A DNA stretch of 64,000 bases from Clostridia bacterium. GTDB taxonomy: Bacteria; Bacillota; Clostridia; Christensenellales; RUG350. Within the stretch, counting starts at the first letter, position 1, and each line of letters starts with the position of its first letter. The stretch lies in assembly GCA_017631635.1 (NCBI GenBank), contig JAGBSX010000022.1, positions 18,659 through 82,658 of the forward strand, in the 5' to 3' direction. The notes beneath the pieces were generated by a model. It was not told where the DNA came from. It saw only the letters and a program-made list of their open reading frames with translations, and did not search any database. The position numbers and the translations under genes were made by a program. Positions 22,529 through 64,000 of this stretch are shown here, piece after piece.

Positions 22529-22884
22529 TGGTGGAGGTGAGGAGAGTCGAACTCCCGTTCAATACAATAGCCGATAATCCTTCTACATACTTAGTCGGTA
22601 TATTGTCATCTTACTACTATCGCCTACCGACAGGCTATAATAGTCGTTATCCCGTATTACCCTATATCCCTACGGGAGTCAGGTATAGAGTTGTCTGCAT
22701 AGTTGATGCCGAGTCTAATACTGCAGAAGATACTAGGTCGACATCGCTGACTTAGGCAGCGAAAGCAAATGAATTGCTGTTAGTTTTGTTTGCGTTTAAA
22801 TTTAATTTTTCGTTTTGACAGAGCCGAAACCTCTGGTATGCTTCTATCACCCTCTACTTGTACTGTCGAATCCGGTACACCCCC
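22529..22884 (-). ncRNA. ssrA: tmRNA (transfer-messenger RNA, SsrA)
   Basis: 5' end is GGGGGUGUACCGGAUUCGACAG. 3' end is GGGAGUUCGACUCUCCUCACCUCCACCA (T-arm plus acceptor with encoded CCA). The G3:U pair is an alanine identity element. Internal tag ORF at 22793-22752: GCA AAC AAA ACU AAC AGC AAU UCA UUU GCU UUC GCU GCC UAA. Confidence 0.9.
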
Positions 22885-58581: not shown

Positions 58582-58788
58582 TTAATAATCTGCAATTCCC
58601 AGTAGATAATCTGTGCTTACCTCAAATATGGTGGCAATACGCACTAGCATATCATAAGACGGCTCGGATGTGTTGAGTTCGTATCTAGTATATGACTGTT
58701 GTCGAACGTTGAGCATATCTGCTATTTGTTGTTGTGTCAGCCCCTTTTCTTTTCTCAATTCTTTCAATCTTTTTGCGAAAATCTCCAT
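58582..58788 (-). CDS. XRE-family helix-turn-helix transcriptional regulator
   Basis: Start moved to MEIFAKRLKELRKEKGLTQQQIADML (AAGGA 7 nt upstream). Classic Cro/C1 HTH. 68 aa. Confidence 0.85.
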   Translation of the reverse strand: MEIFAKRLKELRKEKGLTQQQIADMLNVRQQSYTRYELNTSEPSYDMLVRIATIFEVSTDYLLGIADY

Positions 58789-58838
58789 AATCATATCCTT
58801 TTTTTTGTAAAAATCATTATCAATTTCTATTGACAAAA

Positions 58839-58900: not shown

Positions 58901-59188
58901 ATGTACTGCCAGCATTGTGGTCAAGAAGTCAGAGAGGAAGCAGTGGTATGTATACACTGCGGTTGTGCCATAAATGTGGCAAACCAATCGCCTAAAGAAG
59001 AAGATAAAGAGGACAAACTATTAGCTGAGGTGTCTTTCATGATACCAATAGTTGGATTAATTATTTACTGTACTAATATAGACGAAAAACCTATTATGGC
59101 AAAACATTGTGGAAAGTTTGCGTTGTATGGTTTTATAGTCGCTGTGGTATTGCTCTTATTCGTAGCTTTTTTGCCACTTATTATATAG
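58901..59188 (+). CDS. Zinc-ribbon membrane protein, paralog 1
   Basis: 95 aa. MYCQHCGQEVREEAVVCIHCGC zinc ribbon followed by two TM helices. GGAG upstream. Confidence 0.75.
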   Translation: MYCQHCGQEVREEAVVCIHCGCAINVANQSPKEEDKEDKLLAEVSFMIPIVGLIIYCTNIDEKPIMAKHCGKFALYGFIVAVVLLLFVAFLPLII

Positions 59189-59229: not shown

Positions 59230-59502
59230 ATGAAGTACTGTCAGCATTGTGGTCAAGAAGTCAGGGAGGAAGCAGTGGTATGCATACACTGCGGTTGTGC
59301 TATAAGCCCAGCAAATCAAGTTGTCAAAAATGAAGAAGATAAAAATTCACTCGGATTAAATATACTTTCTTTCTTAATACCAATAGTTGGTTTGATTCTC
59401 TACCTTGTTAATTTAAAAGATAAACCTATTATGGCAAAAGGTATTGGAAAGTCAGCATTGATAGGATTTATAATCAATTGTATAATTTTAATGAATATAT
59501 AA
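59230..59502 (+). CDS. Zinc-ribbon membrane protein, paralog 2
   Basis: Start moved to MKYCQHCGQEVREEAVVCIHCGC (AAGGAGA upstream). 90 aa. Same architecture as 58901-59188. Confidence 0.75.
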   Translation: MKYCQHCGQEVREEAVVCIHCGCAISPANQVVKNEEDKNSLGLNILSFLIPIVGLILYLVNLKDKPIMAKGIGKSALIGFIINCIILMNI

Positions 59503-59507
59503 AAAGA

Positions 59508-59551
59508 ACCCTACAATTCGCAAGTCGCGAATTGTAGGGTATTATTTTTTT
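59508..59551. terminator. Bidirectional rho-independent terminator
   Basis: 14-bp stem ACCCTACAATTCGC/GCGAATTGTAGGGT, 5-nt loop, then T-rich ATTATTTTTTT. Confidence 0.85.
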
Positions 59552-59575: not shown

Positions 59576-60757
59576 TTATCTATACATCTCCATTAGTTGG
59601 TGGAAGTAGGGGATAGATCTACGTACCATATCGGTAGATACGCAGGTGGCTATTCGTACGTAGCCTTTCGCTCCGAAACTATCTGCTGGTACTATGAGTA
59701 GACCTAGTTGTTTTGCCTTGCCCGCAAACTCTATCGAATCTCCATCAGGCACTTTGACTAGTAGATAAAATGCTCCGTCAGGATTAGCGCACTTTAGACC
59801 TAGAGAGGAGAGTTCTCTGATGAGTATATCCCTATTTTGCTGATATACGCTATTGTCAGAGTGTAGACCTACAGTACTTTCTATCACCTTTTGGAATAGT
59901 GATGATGCGCACACGTATCCTAGGCTACGACCTGCACCACATATGCACAAGTATAGAGATTGAGCCTCGGTGAGACTAGGGGATACGGCTATATATCCTA
60001 TACGCTCTCCTGGTAGACATAGCGACTTGCTATAGGAGTAGCATACTACCGTGTCCTTATAATACTTCATAGGATATGGCACTACCACGTCTCCAAATAT
60101 TACCTCACGATAAGGTTCGTCTGCTATGAGTATGATAGGATGAGAGTACTGTTCGCTATATCTAGTGAGTATAGAGGATAGTTTGATGAGGGTATCTTCG
60201 CTATACACTATACCAGAGGGATTGTTTGGCGAATTGATGATGACTGCTCTAGTATTTGGGGTGAGCATAGCCTCTAGTTTATCAAAATCTATTTGGTAGC
60301 CCTCTTCGTCCATCTCTACGTAGCCAAATTTAGCACCTGCACCCTCGCTAAATACTCTGTATTCAGGGAAAAACGGTGCTATTGCTAGTATCTCGTCCTG
60401 AGGAGACTCTACTATGGCATTGAGTGTGATAGTCAGCGCTGCGGCAGCACCTGTAGTCATATACATTAGAGTAGGGTCTACCTCTACGCCGTGAGTGGTA
60501 GATAGGTAGTCTGCTATCGCCTTGCGAGTAGATAGATTGCCAGGGGCAGAGGTATATGCGTGTATAGAGAGGTCTGTGTCTACTAATCTCTTGATACACT
60601 CATTGACGTCACTAGGGGTAGGCACGGATGGATTGCCTAGAGTGAAGTCAAATACTTTGTCTTCGCCTATTTGAGATTTGAGCATATTGCCGTATTCGAA
60701 CAATTCTCTGATGACGGAACGAGATGCTCCTAGGTTGTACATTTTCTTGTTATACAT
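59576..60757 (-). CDS. Class I/II PLP-dependent aminotransferase (aspartate/aromatic aminotransferase-like)
   Basis: 393 aa. The YSYSKSLCLPGERIGY PLP-lysine motif. NPSGIVYS. Confidence 0.85.
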   Translation of the reverse strand: MYNKKMYNLGASRSVIRELFEYGNMLKSQIGEDKVFDFTLGNPSVPTPSDVNECIKRLVDTDLSIHAYTSAPGNLSTRKAIADYLSTTHGVEVDPTLMYMTTGAAAALTITLNAIVESPQDEILAIAPFFPEYRVFSEGAGAKFGYVEMDEEGYQIDFDKLEAMLTPNTRAVIINSPNNPSGIVYSEDTLIKLSSILTRYSEQYSHPIILIADEPYREVIFGDVVVPYPMKYYKDTVVCYSYSKSLCLPGERIGYIAVSPSLTEAQSLYLCICGAGRSLGYVCASSLFQKVIESTVGLHSDNSVYQQNRDILIRELSSLGLKCANPDGAFYLLVKVPDGDSIEFAGKAKQLGLLIVPADSFGAKGYVRIATCVSTDMVRRSIPYFHQLMEMYR

Positions 60758-60847
60758 AATTCACCTCTACTATGATTAAATACTACCAAATGCTAGAGTA
60801 TTTGTCAACTTTTGACTAAATTTCTCCTAATTTTTTCTAAAAATTAG

Positions 60848-60877
60848 TTGACTTATGATATTTTGGAGGGGTATAAT
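60848..60877 (+). promoter_or_regulatory. Predicted promoter of the aromatic amino acid operon leader
   Basis: TTGACT-18 nt-TATAAT. Confidence 0.6.
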
Positions 60878-60894
60878 ATGACAGTAGGTAAGTT

Positions 60895-60954
60895 ATGAAG
60901 AATTACGCAAACCAAAACTTTTATTACTTTTACTTTTTCTTTAACAAGCAATAA
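60895..60954 (+). CDS. Candidate attenuation leader peptide MKNYANQNFYYFYFFFNKQ
   Basis: 19 codons with eight consecutive aromatic codons (F Y Y F Y F F F, 60919-60942). Weak SD AGGT about 6 nt upstream. Followed by antiterminator and terminator elements, then aroF. Confidence 0.6.
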   Translation: MKNYANQNFYYFYFFFNKQ

Positions 60955-61000
60955 GTGATTATCGGTTGTTTTTTTTGCGTAGTAATTAAATGTAATTAAA

Positions 61001-61033
61001 ATGGTCGATAGGGTATATCGACCATTTCTTTTT
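61001..61033 (+). terminator. Attenuator terminator upstream of aroF
   Basis: Perfect 10-bp stem ATGGTCGATA/TATCGACCAT, 5-nt loop, TTCTTTTT tail ending 22 nt before the aroF ATG. An alternative 10-bp pairing (6 WC + 4 GU) exists between 60960-60969 and 61001-61010. Confidence 0.7.
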
Positions 61034-61055
61034 GATTAGACAAGGAGAATATATT

Positions 61056-62072
61056 ATGATTATCATAGTCAAGAATAGTTATGACGACAAGCAACTAAAT
61101 AATCTAATCGAGTGGGTAGAAGGGCTAGGACTTAGCACCAATTTGTCCAAAGGACACCACTCTACCATCTTGGGACTAGTAGGAGACACCTCCAAGGTAG
61201 ATATTGACCTCGTGCGTTCGCTAGACATAGTAGAGGACGTCAAGCGTATCCAAGAGCCATTTAAGAAAGCAAATAGAAAGGTACACCCCGACGATACTAT
61301 CGTCGATATAGGTGGACACAAGGCAGGTGGAGGTCATTTTCAACTAATAGCAGGACCTTGCTCCGTGGAGAGTGAGGCGCAAATCATAGGGGTAGCCCAA
61401 GCAGTCAAAGAGGCTGGCGCTACACTGCTCCGTGGTGGTGCATTTAAGCCTCGCACCTCTCCATACGCATTTCAAGGTATGGGTGCAGAAGGACTAGAAC
61501 TACTAGTCAAAGCCAAGCGTGAGACTGGTATGCCTATCGTCACCGAACTCATGAGTGTCAAGCACATAGATTTGTTTGACGAGGTTGACCTAGTGCAGAT
61601 AGGCGCTAGAAATATGCAAAACTTCGAACTACTCAAAGAGGTAGGTCGTATGGGCAAGCCTATCCTACTCAAACGTGGTCTAGCCAACACTATCCAAGAG
61701 TGGCTAATGAGCGCAGAGTACATTATGGCAGAGGGTTGCTCCGACGTGATACTCTGCGAGAGAGGTATCAGGACGTTTGAGCCATACACACGCAATACTC
61801 TCGACCTCAGCGCTATCCCTCTACTCAAAGAAATCACTCATCTCCCAGTCATAGTAGACCCTTCGCACGCATCGGGACTATCTAGACTAGTCAAGCCACT
61901 ATCTATGGCGAGCGTGGGCGCAGGAGCAGATGGACTGATTATCGAGGTGCACAATGATCCACAACACGCATTGTGCGACGGTGCGCAGAGTATCAAGCCA
62001 GAGCAATTCAAGGACTTGGTAGACCATATAGACGTGATGCTACCACTAGTGAATAAGGTGAGAGACGTATGA
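61056..62072 (+). CDS. aroF: 3-deoxy-7-phosphoheptulonate (DAHP) synthase, type I-beta, with an N-terminal ferredoxin-like regulatory domain
   Basis: Start moved to ATG 61056 (AAGGAGA upstream); the TTG at 61032 lies inside the terminator tail. IAGPCSVES, RGGAFKPRTSPY, DPSH motifs. Confidence 0.9.
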   Translation: MIIIVKNSYDDKQLNNLIEWVEGLGLSTNLSKGHHSTILGLVGDTSKVDIDLVRSLDIVEDVKRIQEPFKKANRKVHPDDTIVDIGGHKAGGGHFQLIAGPCSVESEAQIIGVAQAVKEAGATLLRGGAFKPRTSPYAFQGMGAEGLELLVKAKRETGMPIVTELMSVKHIDLFDEVDLVQIGARNMQNFELLKEVGRMGKPILLKRGLANTIQEWLMSAEYIMAEGCSDVILCERGIRTFEPYTRNTLDLSAIPLLKEITHLPVIVDPSHASGLSRLVKPLSMASVGAGADGLIIEVHNDPQHALCDGAQSIKPEQFKDLVDHIDVMLPLVNKVRDV

Positions 62073-62902
62073 TAGTAGGTATAGTAGGACTAGGGCTAAT
62101 GGGTGGCAGTTTTGGCAGACTGCTAGTAGATAGAGGATATACTGTGTACGGCACGGATCGTAGTGTGGAGGCTATGAAGAAGGCAATCTTAGTCAAGGCT
62201 ATAACCTCTCCACTCACTATGGACAACGTAGCCGAGGTAGATATGCTAGTGATAGCCACTTATCCTAGGAGTTTTGAGAGAGTAGCAGAGAGTTATCTAC
62301 CATATATGAAGAGTGGTGCGATACTTAGTGACTTTTGTGGAAATAAGCGCATAGTCATATCTGCTATGAAACGCCTCTCTCCACTATACCCAGAAATATA
62401 TTTCGTAGGTGGACATCCTATGGCAGGTAGAGAGTATAGTGGTATAGAACACTCTTCTATCAGGTTATTTGACGGTGCGTCTATGATACTAGTACCATAT
62501 AGCCAAGATATACTCAAGTTGGCTATGCTCAAAGACTGGTATATCTCGCTAGGATTTAGGAGAGTAGAGATAACTACTGCAGACAATCACGATAGTATGA
62601 TAGCGTACACGTCGCAGTTGTGCCATATAGTCTCAAATGCCTTTATCAAGAGCGAGAGCGCCAAACTACACGCAGGATATAGCGCAGGTAGTTATAGAGA
62701 TTTGACTAGGGTGGCTAGGTTAGAGCCTAGTATGTGGTCTGAACTCATGATGGACAACAAGGACAAACTCACCGAGGAACTATCCCTACTCATAGACAAT
62801 CTATCCAAGTATCTAGTAGCCTTGCAAAATGGCGACGAGGATACTCTAAGAGCCCTACTTGATGAGGGCAATCAACTAAAAATACTCATAGACAAGAGGT
62901 AA
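62069..62902 (+). CDS. tyrA: Prephenate dehydrogenase
   Basis: 277 aa. IVGLGLMGGSFG Rossmann motif, GGHPMAGRE. Confidence 0.9.
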   Translation: MIVGIVGLGLMGGSFGRLLVDRGYTVYGTDRSVEAMKKAILVKAITSPLTMDNVAEVDMLVIATYPRSFERVAESYLPYMKSGAILSDFCGNKRIVISAMKRLSPLYPEIYFVGGHPMAGREYSGIEHSSIRLFDGASMILVPYSQDILKLAMLKDWYISLGFRRVEITTADNHDSMIAYTSQLCHIVSNAFIKSESAKLHAGYSAGSYRDLTRVARLEPSMWSELMMDNKDKLTEELSLLIDNLSKYLVALQNGDEDTLRALLDEGNQLKILIDKR

Positions 62903-62905
62903 TAT

Positions 62906-63937
62906 ATGATCTTAATTCCGGTCAAAGCATCCAAGACTTACGAAGTGAGTGTCACACAAGATTTTAACGATTTGAGACAAGTCGTAGACGGCGTCAAATC
63001 AGGTGACAAGATAGCCGTCATCACAGACACCAACGTAGAGAAATTGTATCTATCTAGCGTAATAGACGCGCTAGAGGGCTTTGACGTCTGTGTGCATACC
63101 ATACCAGCAGGAGAGAGTAGCAAAAATCTCTCTACCTACTGCACTCTCATCCAAGATATAGCCTCATCATCATTAGATAGGAGTGACATGATTATCACTC
63201 TAGGAGGAGGAGTGGTAGGTGATATAGGTGCATTTGTCGCATCTACTTATCTACGAGGTATTAGGCTAGTAGCGATACCTACCACACTACTATCTATGAT
63301 AGATTCGTCTGTAGGAGGCAAGACTGCAGTAGACCTACCTATCGGCAAAAACTTGGTAGGCACTTTTTATCAACCAAACGCAGTATATATCAACGTGTCT
63401 TGTATAGACACTCTACCTACTAGAGAGTTGATGAGTGGATATGGAGAACTAATCAAATACGCTATACTAGACGATAGGATTAGTATAGATGATATGAAGG
63501 TGCTAGATTCTTCACTCATAGCCAAAGCCGTGTCTATCAAGAGAGATATAGTGGAGGCAGATGAATATGAGGGTGGAGTGCGAAAGTTGCTAAACCTCGG
63601 TCACACCATAGGACACGCAGTAGAGAGTCTATCCAACTACACCTTGTCTCACGGTGAGTGTGTGGTCAAAGGTCTCAGGGCGATACTAGATATCTCCTCT
63701 AGATACTACGATATAAAAGATAGTGATTATACACAATTGGATAGTATTATCCGTATGCTAGGACACGACTGCACTATGCCTTATAGTGTAGATGAAGTGA
63801 TAGACTACGTATATCGAGACAAGAAGAAAAAGGGCGACCTCATAGATATAGTACTTATCAAGGCAAAAGGAGTAGTGGAGATAGTCTCTATGCCGATAGA
63901 TAAGGTGAGGAGGTATCTAAGTGAATATCAAGATTAA
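62906..63937 (+). CDS. aroB: 3-dehydroquinate synthase
   Basis: 343 aa. LGGGVVGDIGAFVASTYLRGI, GHTIGHAVE. Confidence 0.9.
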   Translation: MILIPVKASKTYEVSVTQDFNDLRQVVDGVKSGDKIAVITDTNVEKLYLSSVIDALEGFDVCVHTIPAGESSKNLSTYCTLIQDIASSSLDRSDMIITLGGGVVGDIGAFVASTYLRGIRLVAIPTTLLSMIDSSVGGKTAVDLPIGKNLVGTFYQPNAVYINVSCIDTLPTRELMSGYGELIKYAILDDRISIDDMKVLDSSLIAKAVSIKRDIVEADEYEGGVRKLLNLGHTIGHAVESLSNYTLSHGECVVKGLRAILDISSRYYDIKDSDYTQLDSIIRMLGHDCTMPYSVDEVIDYVYRDKKKKGDLIDIVLIKAKGVVEIVSMPIDKVRRYLSEYQD

Positions 63938-64000
63938 ACCTACCACCTTAAATGGCGAGGTAGTGATAATATCTTCCAAATCTTTTGCACATAGACTACT
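63921..64000 (+). CDS. aroA: 3-phosphoshikimate 1-carboxyvinyltransferase (EPSP synthase), N-terminal fragment running off the right edge
   Basis: GTG start with GGTGAGGAGG upstream. VNIKIKPTTLNGEVVIISSKSFAHRLL matches the EPSPS N-terminal pattern (G.v..p.SKS..HR). Confidence 0.7.
   Translation, partial: MNIKIKPTTLNGEVVIISSKSFAHRL

Follow-up and report, generated by a model that had tools for sequence, protein, structure and literature searches.

The 64,000-nt stretch of a Christensenellales bacterium analyzed here (hereafter the window; contig JAGBSX010000022.1 of assembly GCA_017631635.1) carries close to its 3' end an operon for aromatic amino acid biosynthesis, aroF-tyrA-aroB-aroA, preceded by a leader of about 170 nt between the inferred transcription start and aroF. 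This leader contains a promoter, a short open reading frame (ORF) with an uninterrupted run of phenylalanine (Phe, F) and tyrosine (Tyr, Y) codons, a candidate antiterminator and an intrinsic terminator, as shown in Table 1. [quoted passage not shown] The tyrA product was recognized by both Pfam domains of prephenate dehydrogenases, with every NCBIfam prephenate dehydrogenase match falling under its curated cut-off, while aroB was additionally matched by TIGR01357 at 324 bits. The window ends inside aroA, whose translation, VNIKIKPTTLNGEVVIISSKSFAHRL, matches the N-terminus of the gene at the same position in a syntenic relative (L001); that gene matches PF00275 at 1.9e-82, which identifies it as a 5-enolpyruvylshikimate-3-phosphate (EPSP) synthase. 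The genes downstream of the leader are those of the common aromatic pathway and of its Tyr branch.

Table 1. Features of the aroF leader and operon, with positions in the window.
Feature	Position	Strand	Details	Basis
Sigma-70-type promoter	60848-60877	+	-35 TTGACT at 60848-60853, 18-nt spacer, -10 TATAAT at 60872-60877	Consensus scan
Leader Shine-Dalgarno (SD), weak	60886-60889	+	AGGT; 5 nt (60890-60894) to the ATG	Read from sequence
Leader ORF	60895-60954	+	19 codons plus stop, MKNYANQNFYYFYFFFNKQ; ATG at 60895, TAA at 60952-60954	
P1, 5' strand	60902-60911	+	AUUACGCAAA, leader codons 3-6; pairs with 60974-60983	Minimum free energy (MFE) folds
Run of eight Phe/Tyr codons	60919-60942	+	Codons 9-16; proposed ribosome stall sites	
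Candidate antiterminator, 5' strand	60960-60972	+	UAUCGGUUGUUUU; pairs with 60998-61010	
P1, 3' strand	60974-60983	+	UUUGCGUAGU	MFE folds
Terminator 5' arm	60998-61010	+	Shared by antiterminator (60998-61010) and terminator (60999-61010)	Sequence, folding, relatives
Terminator 3' arm and U-tail	61016-61035	+	Arm 61016-61027; U-tail CTTTTTGA at 61028-61035	Folding, covariation
aroF SD	61042-61047	+	AAGGAG	
aroF	61056-62072	+	DAHP synthase type I-beta with N-terminal ferredoxin-like (FXD) regulatory domain; ATG at 61056-61058	Pfam, NCBIfam
tyrA	62069-62902	+	Prephenate dehydrogenase	Pfam PDH_N and PDH_C
aroB	62906-63937	+	3-Dehydroquinate synthase	Pfam; TIGR01357
aroA, start	63921-64000	+	EPSP synthase; GTG at 63921, first 26 codons, cut by the window end	

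The promoter of the original prediction, TTGACT-18-TATAAT, was recovered by the consensus scan with 11 of 12 consensus positions matched, and transcription would start near 60884, about 7 nt past the TATAAT. Relatives possess a TTGACA or TTGACT together with a -10 element at a spacing to the leader ATG like that of the window, and purine-rich SD-like motifs (GGAG, AGGAG, AGGTGA, AAGGA) precede their leader ATGs. The 19-codon ORF with eight consecutive Phe/Tyr codons was likewise found as described, its run reading TTT TAT TAC TTT TAC TTT TTC TTT, that is, five Phe and three Tyr codons. Among 5000 dinucleotide-shuffled versions of the 230 nt before aroF, only 9 contained an ATG mini-ORF with seven or more aromatic residues in eight, and when both strands of the 64-kb window were searched with any start codon, the leader was the single mini-ORF of this kind. 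The F/Y run in the leader ORF is beyond chance.

Using the AroF protein as query, 80 loci were collected from species-representative genomes and as many from metagenomes, with the closest AroF relatives (72-80% identity) belonging to Christensenellaceae and other Clostridia metagenome-assembled genomes (MAGs); neither the genome nor the metagenome scan yielded a leader nearer than about 80% AroF identity. An aromatic-rich mini-ORF upstream of aroF, which the original prediction had proposed to look for in relatives, was present in 37 of 76 regions (75 species-level genomes and the window) when an ATG start, at least six Phe, Tyr or tryptophan residues in eight and a distance of ≤250 nt from aroF were demanded, as compared with 0.24% of shuffles; the reverse strands had none. 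Of the amino acid classes tested, aromatic residues were the only one enriched in the mini-ORFs of these 76 regions. Among the metagenome loci, 44 of 77 carried an F/Y-rich mini-ORF at a threshold of at least five in eight, so that about half of approximately 150 aroF loci harbor an F/Y leader, some of them with a GC content >0.5. The leaders span upstream GC contents from 0.2 to 0.57 and fall into subfamilies of distinct sequence, in Christensenellales (typically MKK..FYFYAYYF.KPYF), Faecousia/Oscillospiraceae (MSSAAQFYFYYYYFFTQKK), Clostridium (MQKFYSFFYFTFWGFYFSAGY...) and Veillonella (..QYFYFWFFIQSTGKGLFGLR). In 50 distinct leaders, the aromatic codons were TTT (188), TTC (47), TAT (96), TAC (89) and TGG (15); both synonymous codons are used, suggesting that selection acts on the encoded residues and not on a pyrimidine tract. 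Judged from these comparisons, the mini-ORF is conserved at the amino acid level at the aroF loci of many Clostridia and Negativicutes.

Nine Christensenellales-type leaders (L001, L003, L006, L009, L010, L014, L016, L027 and L083) end in (K/R)-P-(Y/D)-(F/C)-stop, and the proline near the stop could slow termination of translation. In these relatives, the codons of the leader end (AGCC/GACC and AUAUU) pair with the antiterminator strand (AAUAU-C-GGUU) in a '1:2'-like hairpin, which the window leader, ending in ..NKQ, lacks. Eleven Veillonella-labelled loci (L020, L033, L037, L040, L041, L061, L068, L069, L109, L125 and L129) have longer leaders that share a non-aromatic tail, FFIQ(S/T)TGK(G/E)LF(G/E)LR; in the four for which the duplex was computed (L020, L033, L037 and L041), the tail codons ACGGGUAA..GGA base-pair with the 5' arm of the terminator, and the conservation of the peptide probably reflects RNA structure. 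F/Y leaders before an FXD-type aroF were also encountered outside Firmicutes bins, in a Lentisphaeria MAG (L060) and a Planctomycetaceae-labelled MAG (L076), where horizontal transfer or mis-binning could account for them. At the thresholds used, an F/Y mini-ORF is missing from about half of the related aroF loci (for instance L042, L044, L056, L059, L062, L070 and L075), among them those of Romboutsia, Massilimicrobiota and several Clostridium; these loci are presumably under a different control, be it uORF-12-like (see below), T-box or protein-based.

The terminator of the window is a perfect 12-bp stem (60999-61010/61016-61027) closed by a GGGTA loop, with a folding energy of -15.1 kcal/mol, and it begins 44 nt past the leader stop codon and ends 20 nt ahead of the aroF ATG. 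A perfect hairpin with a U-tail had been predicted and is there, but with the U-tail it covers 60999-61035 and its stem measures 12 bp and not 10. No gene ends at this hairpin on either strand. A terminator lies 3' of the leader in 41 of 52 leader-bearing loci, the window counted. Three alignments of leaders were prepared: a MAFFT alignment of whole leaders (A1), which mis-registers the ATGs and the terminator arm of one relative (L016) and from which RNAalifold returned just the terminator plus a hairpin of 4 bp that joins the leader 3' end to the antiterminator strand; an alignment of 17 sequences (A2), which mis-aligns GCGG-type terminators; and an alignment of 12 sequences (A3). Because of the fault in A2, a table of 17 sequences (the window and 16 relatives) anchored on a CGG/CCG core was used together with A3, the latter for formal counts. 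Extending the CGG/CCG anchor to all subfamilies proved too permissive to be informative. In A3, 95.8% of the terminator cells are paired, with compensatory changes in six of the 12 pairs, and none of 500 shuffles reached as high a value.

Upstream of the terminator, the strand that directly follows the leader stop codon can pair with the terminator 5' arm. This candidate antiterminator had been predicted as a helix of 10 bp; its pairing with the 5' arm holds, and a homologous helix exists in 16 relatives, while its length in the window is 13 bp (60960-60972/60998-61010), made up of nine Watson-Crick and four G·U pairs, with a hairpin energy of -11.7 kcal/mol. The antiterminator claim rests on the relatives, since the duplex of the window alone has no significance. 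In nine close relatives, the terminator 5' arm pairs best with a strand that begins 1-6 nt past the leader stop codon, with z-scores from -2.1 to -5.2, and a position directly past the stop is the most conserved geometric feature among close relatives. The anchored table gives a 9-bp core in which each position is paired in at least 15 of the 17 sequences, and the pair 5' of this core is U-A in 11 sequences, A-U in one and G-C in five, with the terminator 3' arm co-varying in step. Similarly, in A3 (aligned with MAFFT), the proposed register has 80.8% of its cells paired against 28-53% in slid registers; the shuffle support on the same alignment is modest (12/500). Relative to the group consensus, the 5' arm of the window carries two transitions (GACC to GGTC), which the terminator 3' arm offsets with Watson-Crick pairs and which the unchanged antiterminator strand accommodates by wobble. 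These transitions account for the weakness of the helix in the window, and the pairing kept by wobble is consistent with continued constraint.

The competition between the two structures was modelled on a transcript ending at 61012, in which the terminator 5' arm has emerged and the 3' arm is yet to be made, with a 27-nt ribosome footprint masked. With the A-site on any of five F/Y codons of the window, the mean probability of the antiterminator was 0.94-0.97, whereas it dropped to 0.18, or 0.26 by a second measure, with the A-site on the stop codon. In the latter position, the ribosome covers 60960-60963, which hold the strongest pairs of the antiterminator, and a stem termed P1 (60902-60911/60974-60983) forms instead. 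These values (about 0.95 against 0.18-0.26) support the predicted logic, in which a ribosome at the stop codon leads to termination and a stalled ribosome to read-through. Among 11 relatives tested in the same way, a ribosome on the stop codon reduced the probability to ≤0.12 in 10 and left 0.58 in one (L003), and in all 11 the value was lower at the stop codon than at the best stall position.

P1, an element that the original prediction does not include, is a 10-bp stem that encloses the F/Y codons in the MFE fold, and it can be extended by pairing of AAAAC (60913/14-60917/18) with GUUUU, the 3'-terminal part of the antiterminator strand. Its TACGCA/TGCGTA sequences also occur in four relatives (L001, L010, L016 and L027), and the TTTTGCGTA motif 3' of the antiterminator strand is conserved among relatives. 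Duplex shuffling of P1 in the relatives gave z-scores from -2.6 to +0.9, which are unconvincing alone. P1-like stems around the aromatic codons were observed in Clostridium, Faecousia and Veillonella leaders, and from the folding models we take P1 to be probably a pause or '1:2' element.

Taken as a whole, the leader has the features of the trpL/pheL/hisL class of ribosome-mediated attenuators, with a mini-ORF bearing a codon cluster, an intrinsic terminator, an antiterminator whose formation depends on ribosome position (on thermodynamic and comparative grounds) and downstream genes of the sensed pathway. We consider it highly probable that the element is a leader-peptide attenuator that would tie the expression of aroF-tyrA-aroB-aroA to the levels of charged tRNA-Phe and tRNA-Tyr, and from the sequence and the models we infer the translation of the leader, the stalling, the part played by P1 and the regulatory outcome. 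In this mechanism, the 19-codon leader would be translated by a ribosome soon after transcription has started. With ample Phe-tRNA and Tyr-tRNA, the ribosome would reach the stop codon and cover the first four nucleotides of the antiterminator, so that the 5' arm would be free for its 3' arm and the 12-bp hairpin with its U-tail would stop RNA polymerase at about 61030-61035, before aroF. With either aminoacyl-tRNA in short supply, the ribosome would stall within the F/Y run and leave the antiterminator strand exposed, which would pair with the 5' arm once this is transcribed; the terminator would then not form and the operon would be read through. P1 would be opened by the translating ribosome and, when formed, would favor termination.

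Several results weigh against this interpretation. The antiterminator of the window is weak, with its four G·U pairs being consecutive, a duplex energy of -6.0 kcal/mol and a z-score of -0.17 against shuffles, and the covariation of the antiterminator among the 12 closest sequences hangs on a single relative (L003). When the full transcript was folded at equilibrium, the terminator always won (P = 0.93 under all masks), so the decision must be kinetic, as in classical attenuators. The ribosome-free model also gives the antiterminator (P = 0.95), unlike the trp attenuator, in which an untranslated leader leads to termination. In addition, the leader SD is weak and separated from the presumed 5' end of the transcript by just about 2 nt, P1 has no individual significance (z = -1.1), and the relatives share phylogeny, so that the counts obtained from them are not independent.

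The same parts might operate by a different logic, which we regard as unlikely, with the leader translated but the decisive step being something other than the covering of the antiterminator by a terminating ribosome: P1 might be the real switch, either through classical 1:2/2:3/3:4 competition or by acting as a hairpin at which RNA polymerase pauses, the F/Y-rich nascent chain might act as an arrest peptide, or the leader might control mRNA stability or Rho-dependent termination in place of an intrinsic terminator. P1 forms both in the MFE fold of the entire leader and when the stop codon is occupied by a ribosome, a P1-like stem belongs to the published consensus of a similar motif (uORF-13, discussed below), and such stems recur in the three other subfamilies; in Faecousia-type leaders, the P1 3' strand even doubles as the antiterminator strand, and close relatives form the hairpin between the leader 3' end and the antiterminator that the window lacks. 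The default of the free RNA, being the antiterminator, also means that something else may enforce termination. However, P1 and the antiterminator overlap by just about 5 nt in the window, where P1 is no different from shuffles, and it is the strand directly past the stop codon whose geometry is best conserved in close relatives. An arrest peptide of specific sequence is argued against by the peptide beyond the F/Y run, which is unconserved across subfamilies; a further point against a different logic is the intrinsic terminator, which is of canonical form and shows covariation.

Textbook accounts of aromatic gene regulation in Firmicutes name T-boxes and TRAP. Together with the weak leader SD, this would favor an RNA element read by a factor other than the ribosome (a T-box, a TRAP-like protein or another factor binding pyrimidine tracts), with the ORF being incidental, yet we judge this reading very improbable. 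An Rfam scan of the whole window at the gathering threshold, and of 60700-61150 at E ≤10, placed neither a T-box (RF00230) nor any leader family at the aroF leader, which, from its inferred start to aroF, is also short for a T-box. TRAP-regulated leaders of the Bacillus trp/aroFBH type consist of 9-11 (G/U)AG triplets spaced 2-3 nt apart, whereas the leader of the window has five scattered KAG triplets, with the longest properly spaced chain being one. Above all, the signal lies at the codon level: it is in frame, is accompanied by an ATG and SD in relatives, tolerates F/Y interchange and synonymous variation, and is absent from the reverse strand. The same permissive scan of 60700-61150 yielded only matches such as DapZ, sroB and rpsL_ricks, which were rejected as chance matches driven by the terminator and far below gathering. 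A chance ORF in T-rich intergenic DNA beside an ordinary hairpin, for which one could cite the AT-rich surroundings, where TTT, TAT and TAC codons are expected often, and the window antiterminator being no better than shuffles, is the least probable reading of all and, on the comparative data, is effectively refuted by the rarity of such an ORF in shuffles and in the 64 kb, by its retention in about half of the aroF loci, GC-rich ones included, and by a hairpin at which no gene ends.

Leader-peptide attenuators of this kind have been predicted before, and the statement of the original prediction that one would be noteworthy in Firmicutes was too strong: F-Y-F upstream-ORF attenuators at aroF and tyrA were published in 2019 (PMC6429828) and a related Acholeplasma motif in 2021 (PMC8632094). 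According to the former (Stav et al. 2019, BMC Microbiol 19:66), two 'aromatic amino acid attenuators', uORF-12 and uORF-13, were found from Clostridium novyi. The 1258 examples of uORF-12 lie chiefly upstream of transporters, while the 336 examples of uORF-13 come from Bacillales, Clostridiales, Thermoanaerobacterales, Negativicutes and metagenomes; roughly one in two lies upstream of aroF, with tyrA being the next commonest neighbor (PMC6429828). The uORF-13 motif is presented there as a bioinformatic candidate consisting of a short ORF whose F-Y-F lies in the loop of a P1 stem, followed by a terminator stem. By description, the window element has the same features, with its P1 as a candidate counterpart of the published stem. 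The 3' strand of P1 lies past the stop codon in the window, whereas it lies inside a longer ORF in the Clostridium leaders, and the paper describes no antiterminator, nor its position relative to the stop codon (PMC6429828). The uORFC-13-1 motif of Brewer et al. 2021 (RNA Biol 18:2417; PMC8632094), with 24 examples from Acholeplasma and environmental sequences, occurs exclusively upstream of aroF and resembles the window in its promoter, ribosome-binding site, start codon, Phe-coding U-run and adjacent intrinsic terminator, and it was proposed to be a Phe-sensing attenuator; as described, it has 'at least one' Phe codon, against the eight-codon F/Y run of the window. The uORF-12, uORF-13 and uORFC-13-1 motifs are absent from Rfam 15. 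An unexplained premature termination in the aroF 5' untranslated region of C. difficile was reported by Fuchs et al. 2021 (PMC8237595).

Experimental precedent comes from the aroR-aroF leader of Corynebacterium glutamicum, in which, according to the summary of Neshat et al. 2014 in PMC11802643, ribosome stalling under Phe limitation raises transcription. Like the window, aroR has a Phe-Tyr-Phe leader peptide upstream of a DAHP synthase operon, but it belongs to Actinobacteria and, in that account, responded to Phe and not to Tyr. In PMC6429828, the aroR peptide and its RNA structure are described as differing from the motifs of Firmicutes. In the literature searched, aroR is the sole aroF peptide attenuator with experimental support, and neither a follow-up to uORF-12 and uORF-13 nor a validation of the Firmicutes motifs was found there. 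With pheL-pheA and trpL-trp of E. coli, the window shares a mini-ORF that carries the regulatory codons, antiterminator and terminator structures that exclude each other, and a decision set by the ribosome position. Unlike these, it matches Rfam Phe_leader and Trp_leader in neither sequence nor structure even at E ≤10, would sense both Phe and Tyr codons (five and three), precedes the common pathway (aroF, aroB, aroA) and tyrA and not pheA as in pheL-pheA, and has the antiterminator, not the terminator, as the default of the free-RNA model. Judged from its sequence, the window element is most likely a genuine, well-formed Phe/Tyr leader-peptide attenuator of the kind already predicted for Firmicutes, and not a new kind. 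Whether the Christensenellales-type leader amounts to a distinct attenuator lineage, outside the uORF-12/13 and uORFC-13-1 models, and a true dual sensor of Phe and Tyr, is a speculative proposition that we put forward only tentatively and think somewhat doubtful; the traits of such a lineage may be a very short peptide of 16-20 aa, an antiterminator strand 1-6 nt past the stop codon, by which a ribosome terminating there would itself give the 'off' signal, and read-through as the default of an untranslated leader.

On the other side of the aroF promoter, a divergent gene on the minus strand (59576-60757; NF005305, 485 bits) encodes a pyridoxal phosphate-dependent class I/II aminotransferase, with a promoter-like site at 60808-60780, and the same divergent arrangement with aroF was seen in a relative (L001); the enzyme may be the transaminase that completes Phe and Tyr synthesis. 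Farther upstream, two tandem paralogous small genes on the plus strand (58901-59188 and about 59230-59502) each encode a zinc-ribbon-like motif (M.YCQHCGQEVREEAVVCIHCGCAI) at the N-terminus and a hydrophobic segment at the C-terminus. Next to them lies a divergent ORF of the XRE type with a helix-turn-helix (58582-58836, minus strand), and past them a strong terminator that is bidirectional (59508-59540). The window also contains a transfer-messenger RNA gene (22529-22884, minus strand; RF00023, 151.9 bits), with an overlapping weaker match to the permuted form that appears secondary.

The analysis adds independent comparative support, in the form of antiterminator geometry, covariation and ribosome masking, to an attenuator class that was published as bioinformatic candidates. 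With an F/Y leader present at roughly every second FXD-type aroF locus sampled, T-box and TRAP would not be the sole forms of aromatic control in Firmicutes, and annotation pipelines should mark such mini-ORFs and terminators as attenuators and avoid calling them hypothetical small proteins or small RNAs. For the poorly studied, mostly uncultured gut-associated Clostridia of the Christensenellales-like kind, the model offers a concrete, testable mechanism for an aromatic operon, and if the dual sensing of Phe and Tyr is true, it would be layered on an FXD-domain DAHP synthase inhibitable by Tyr or Phe.

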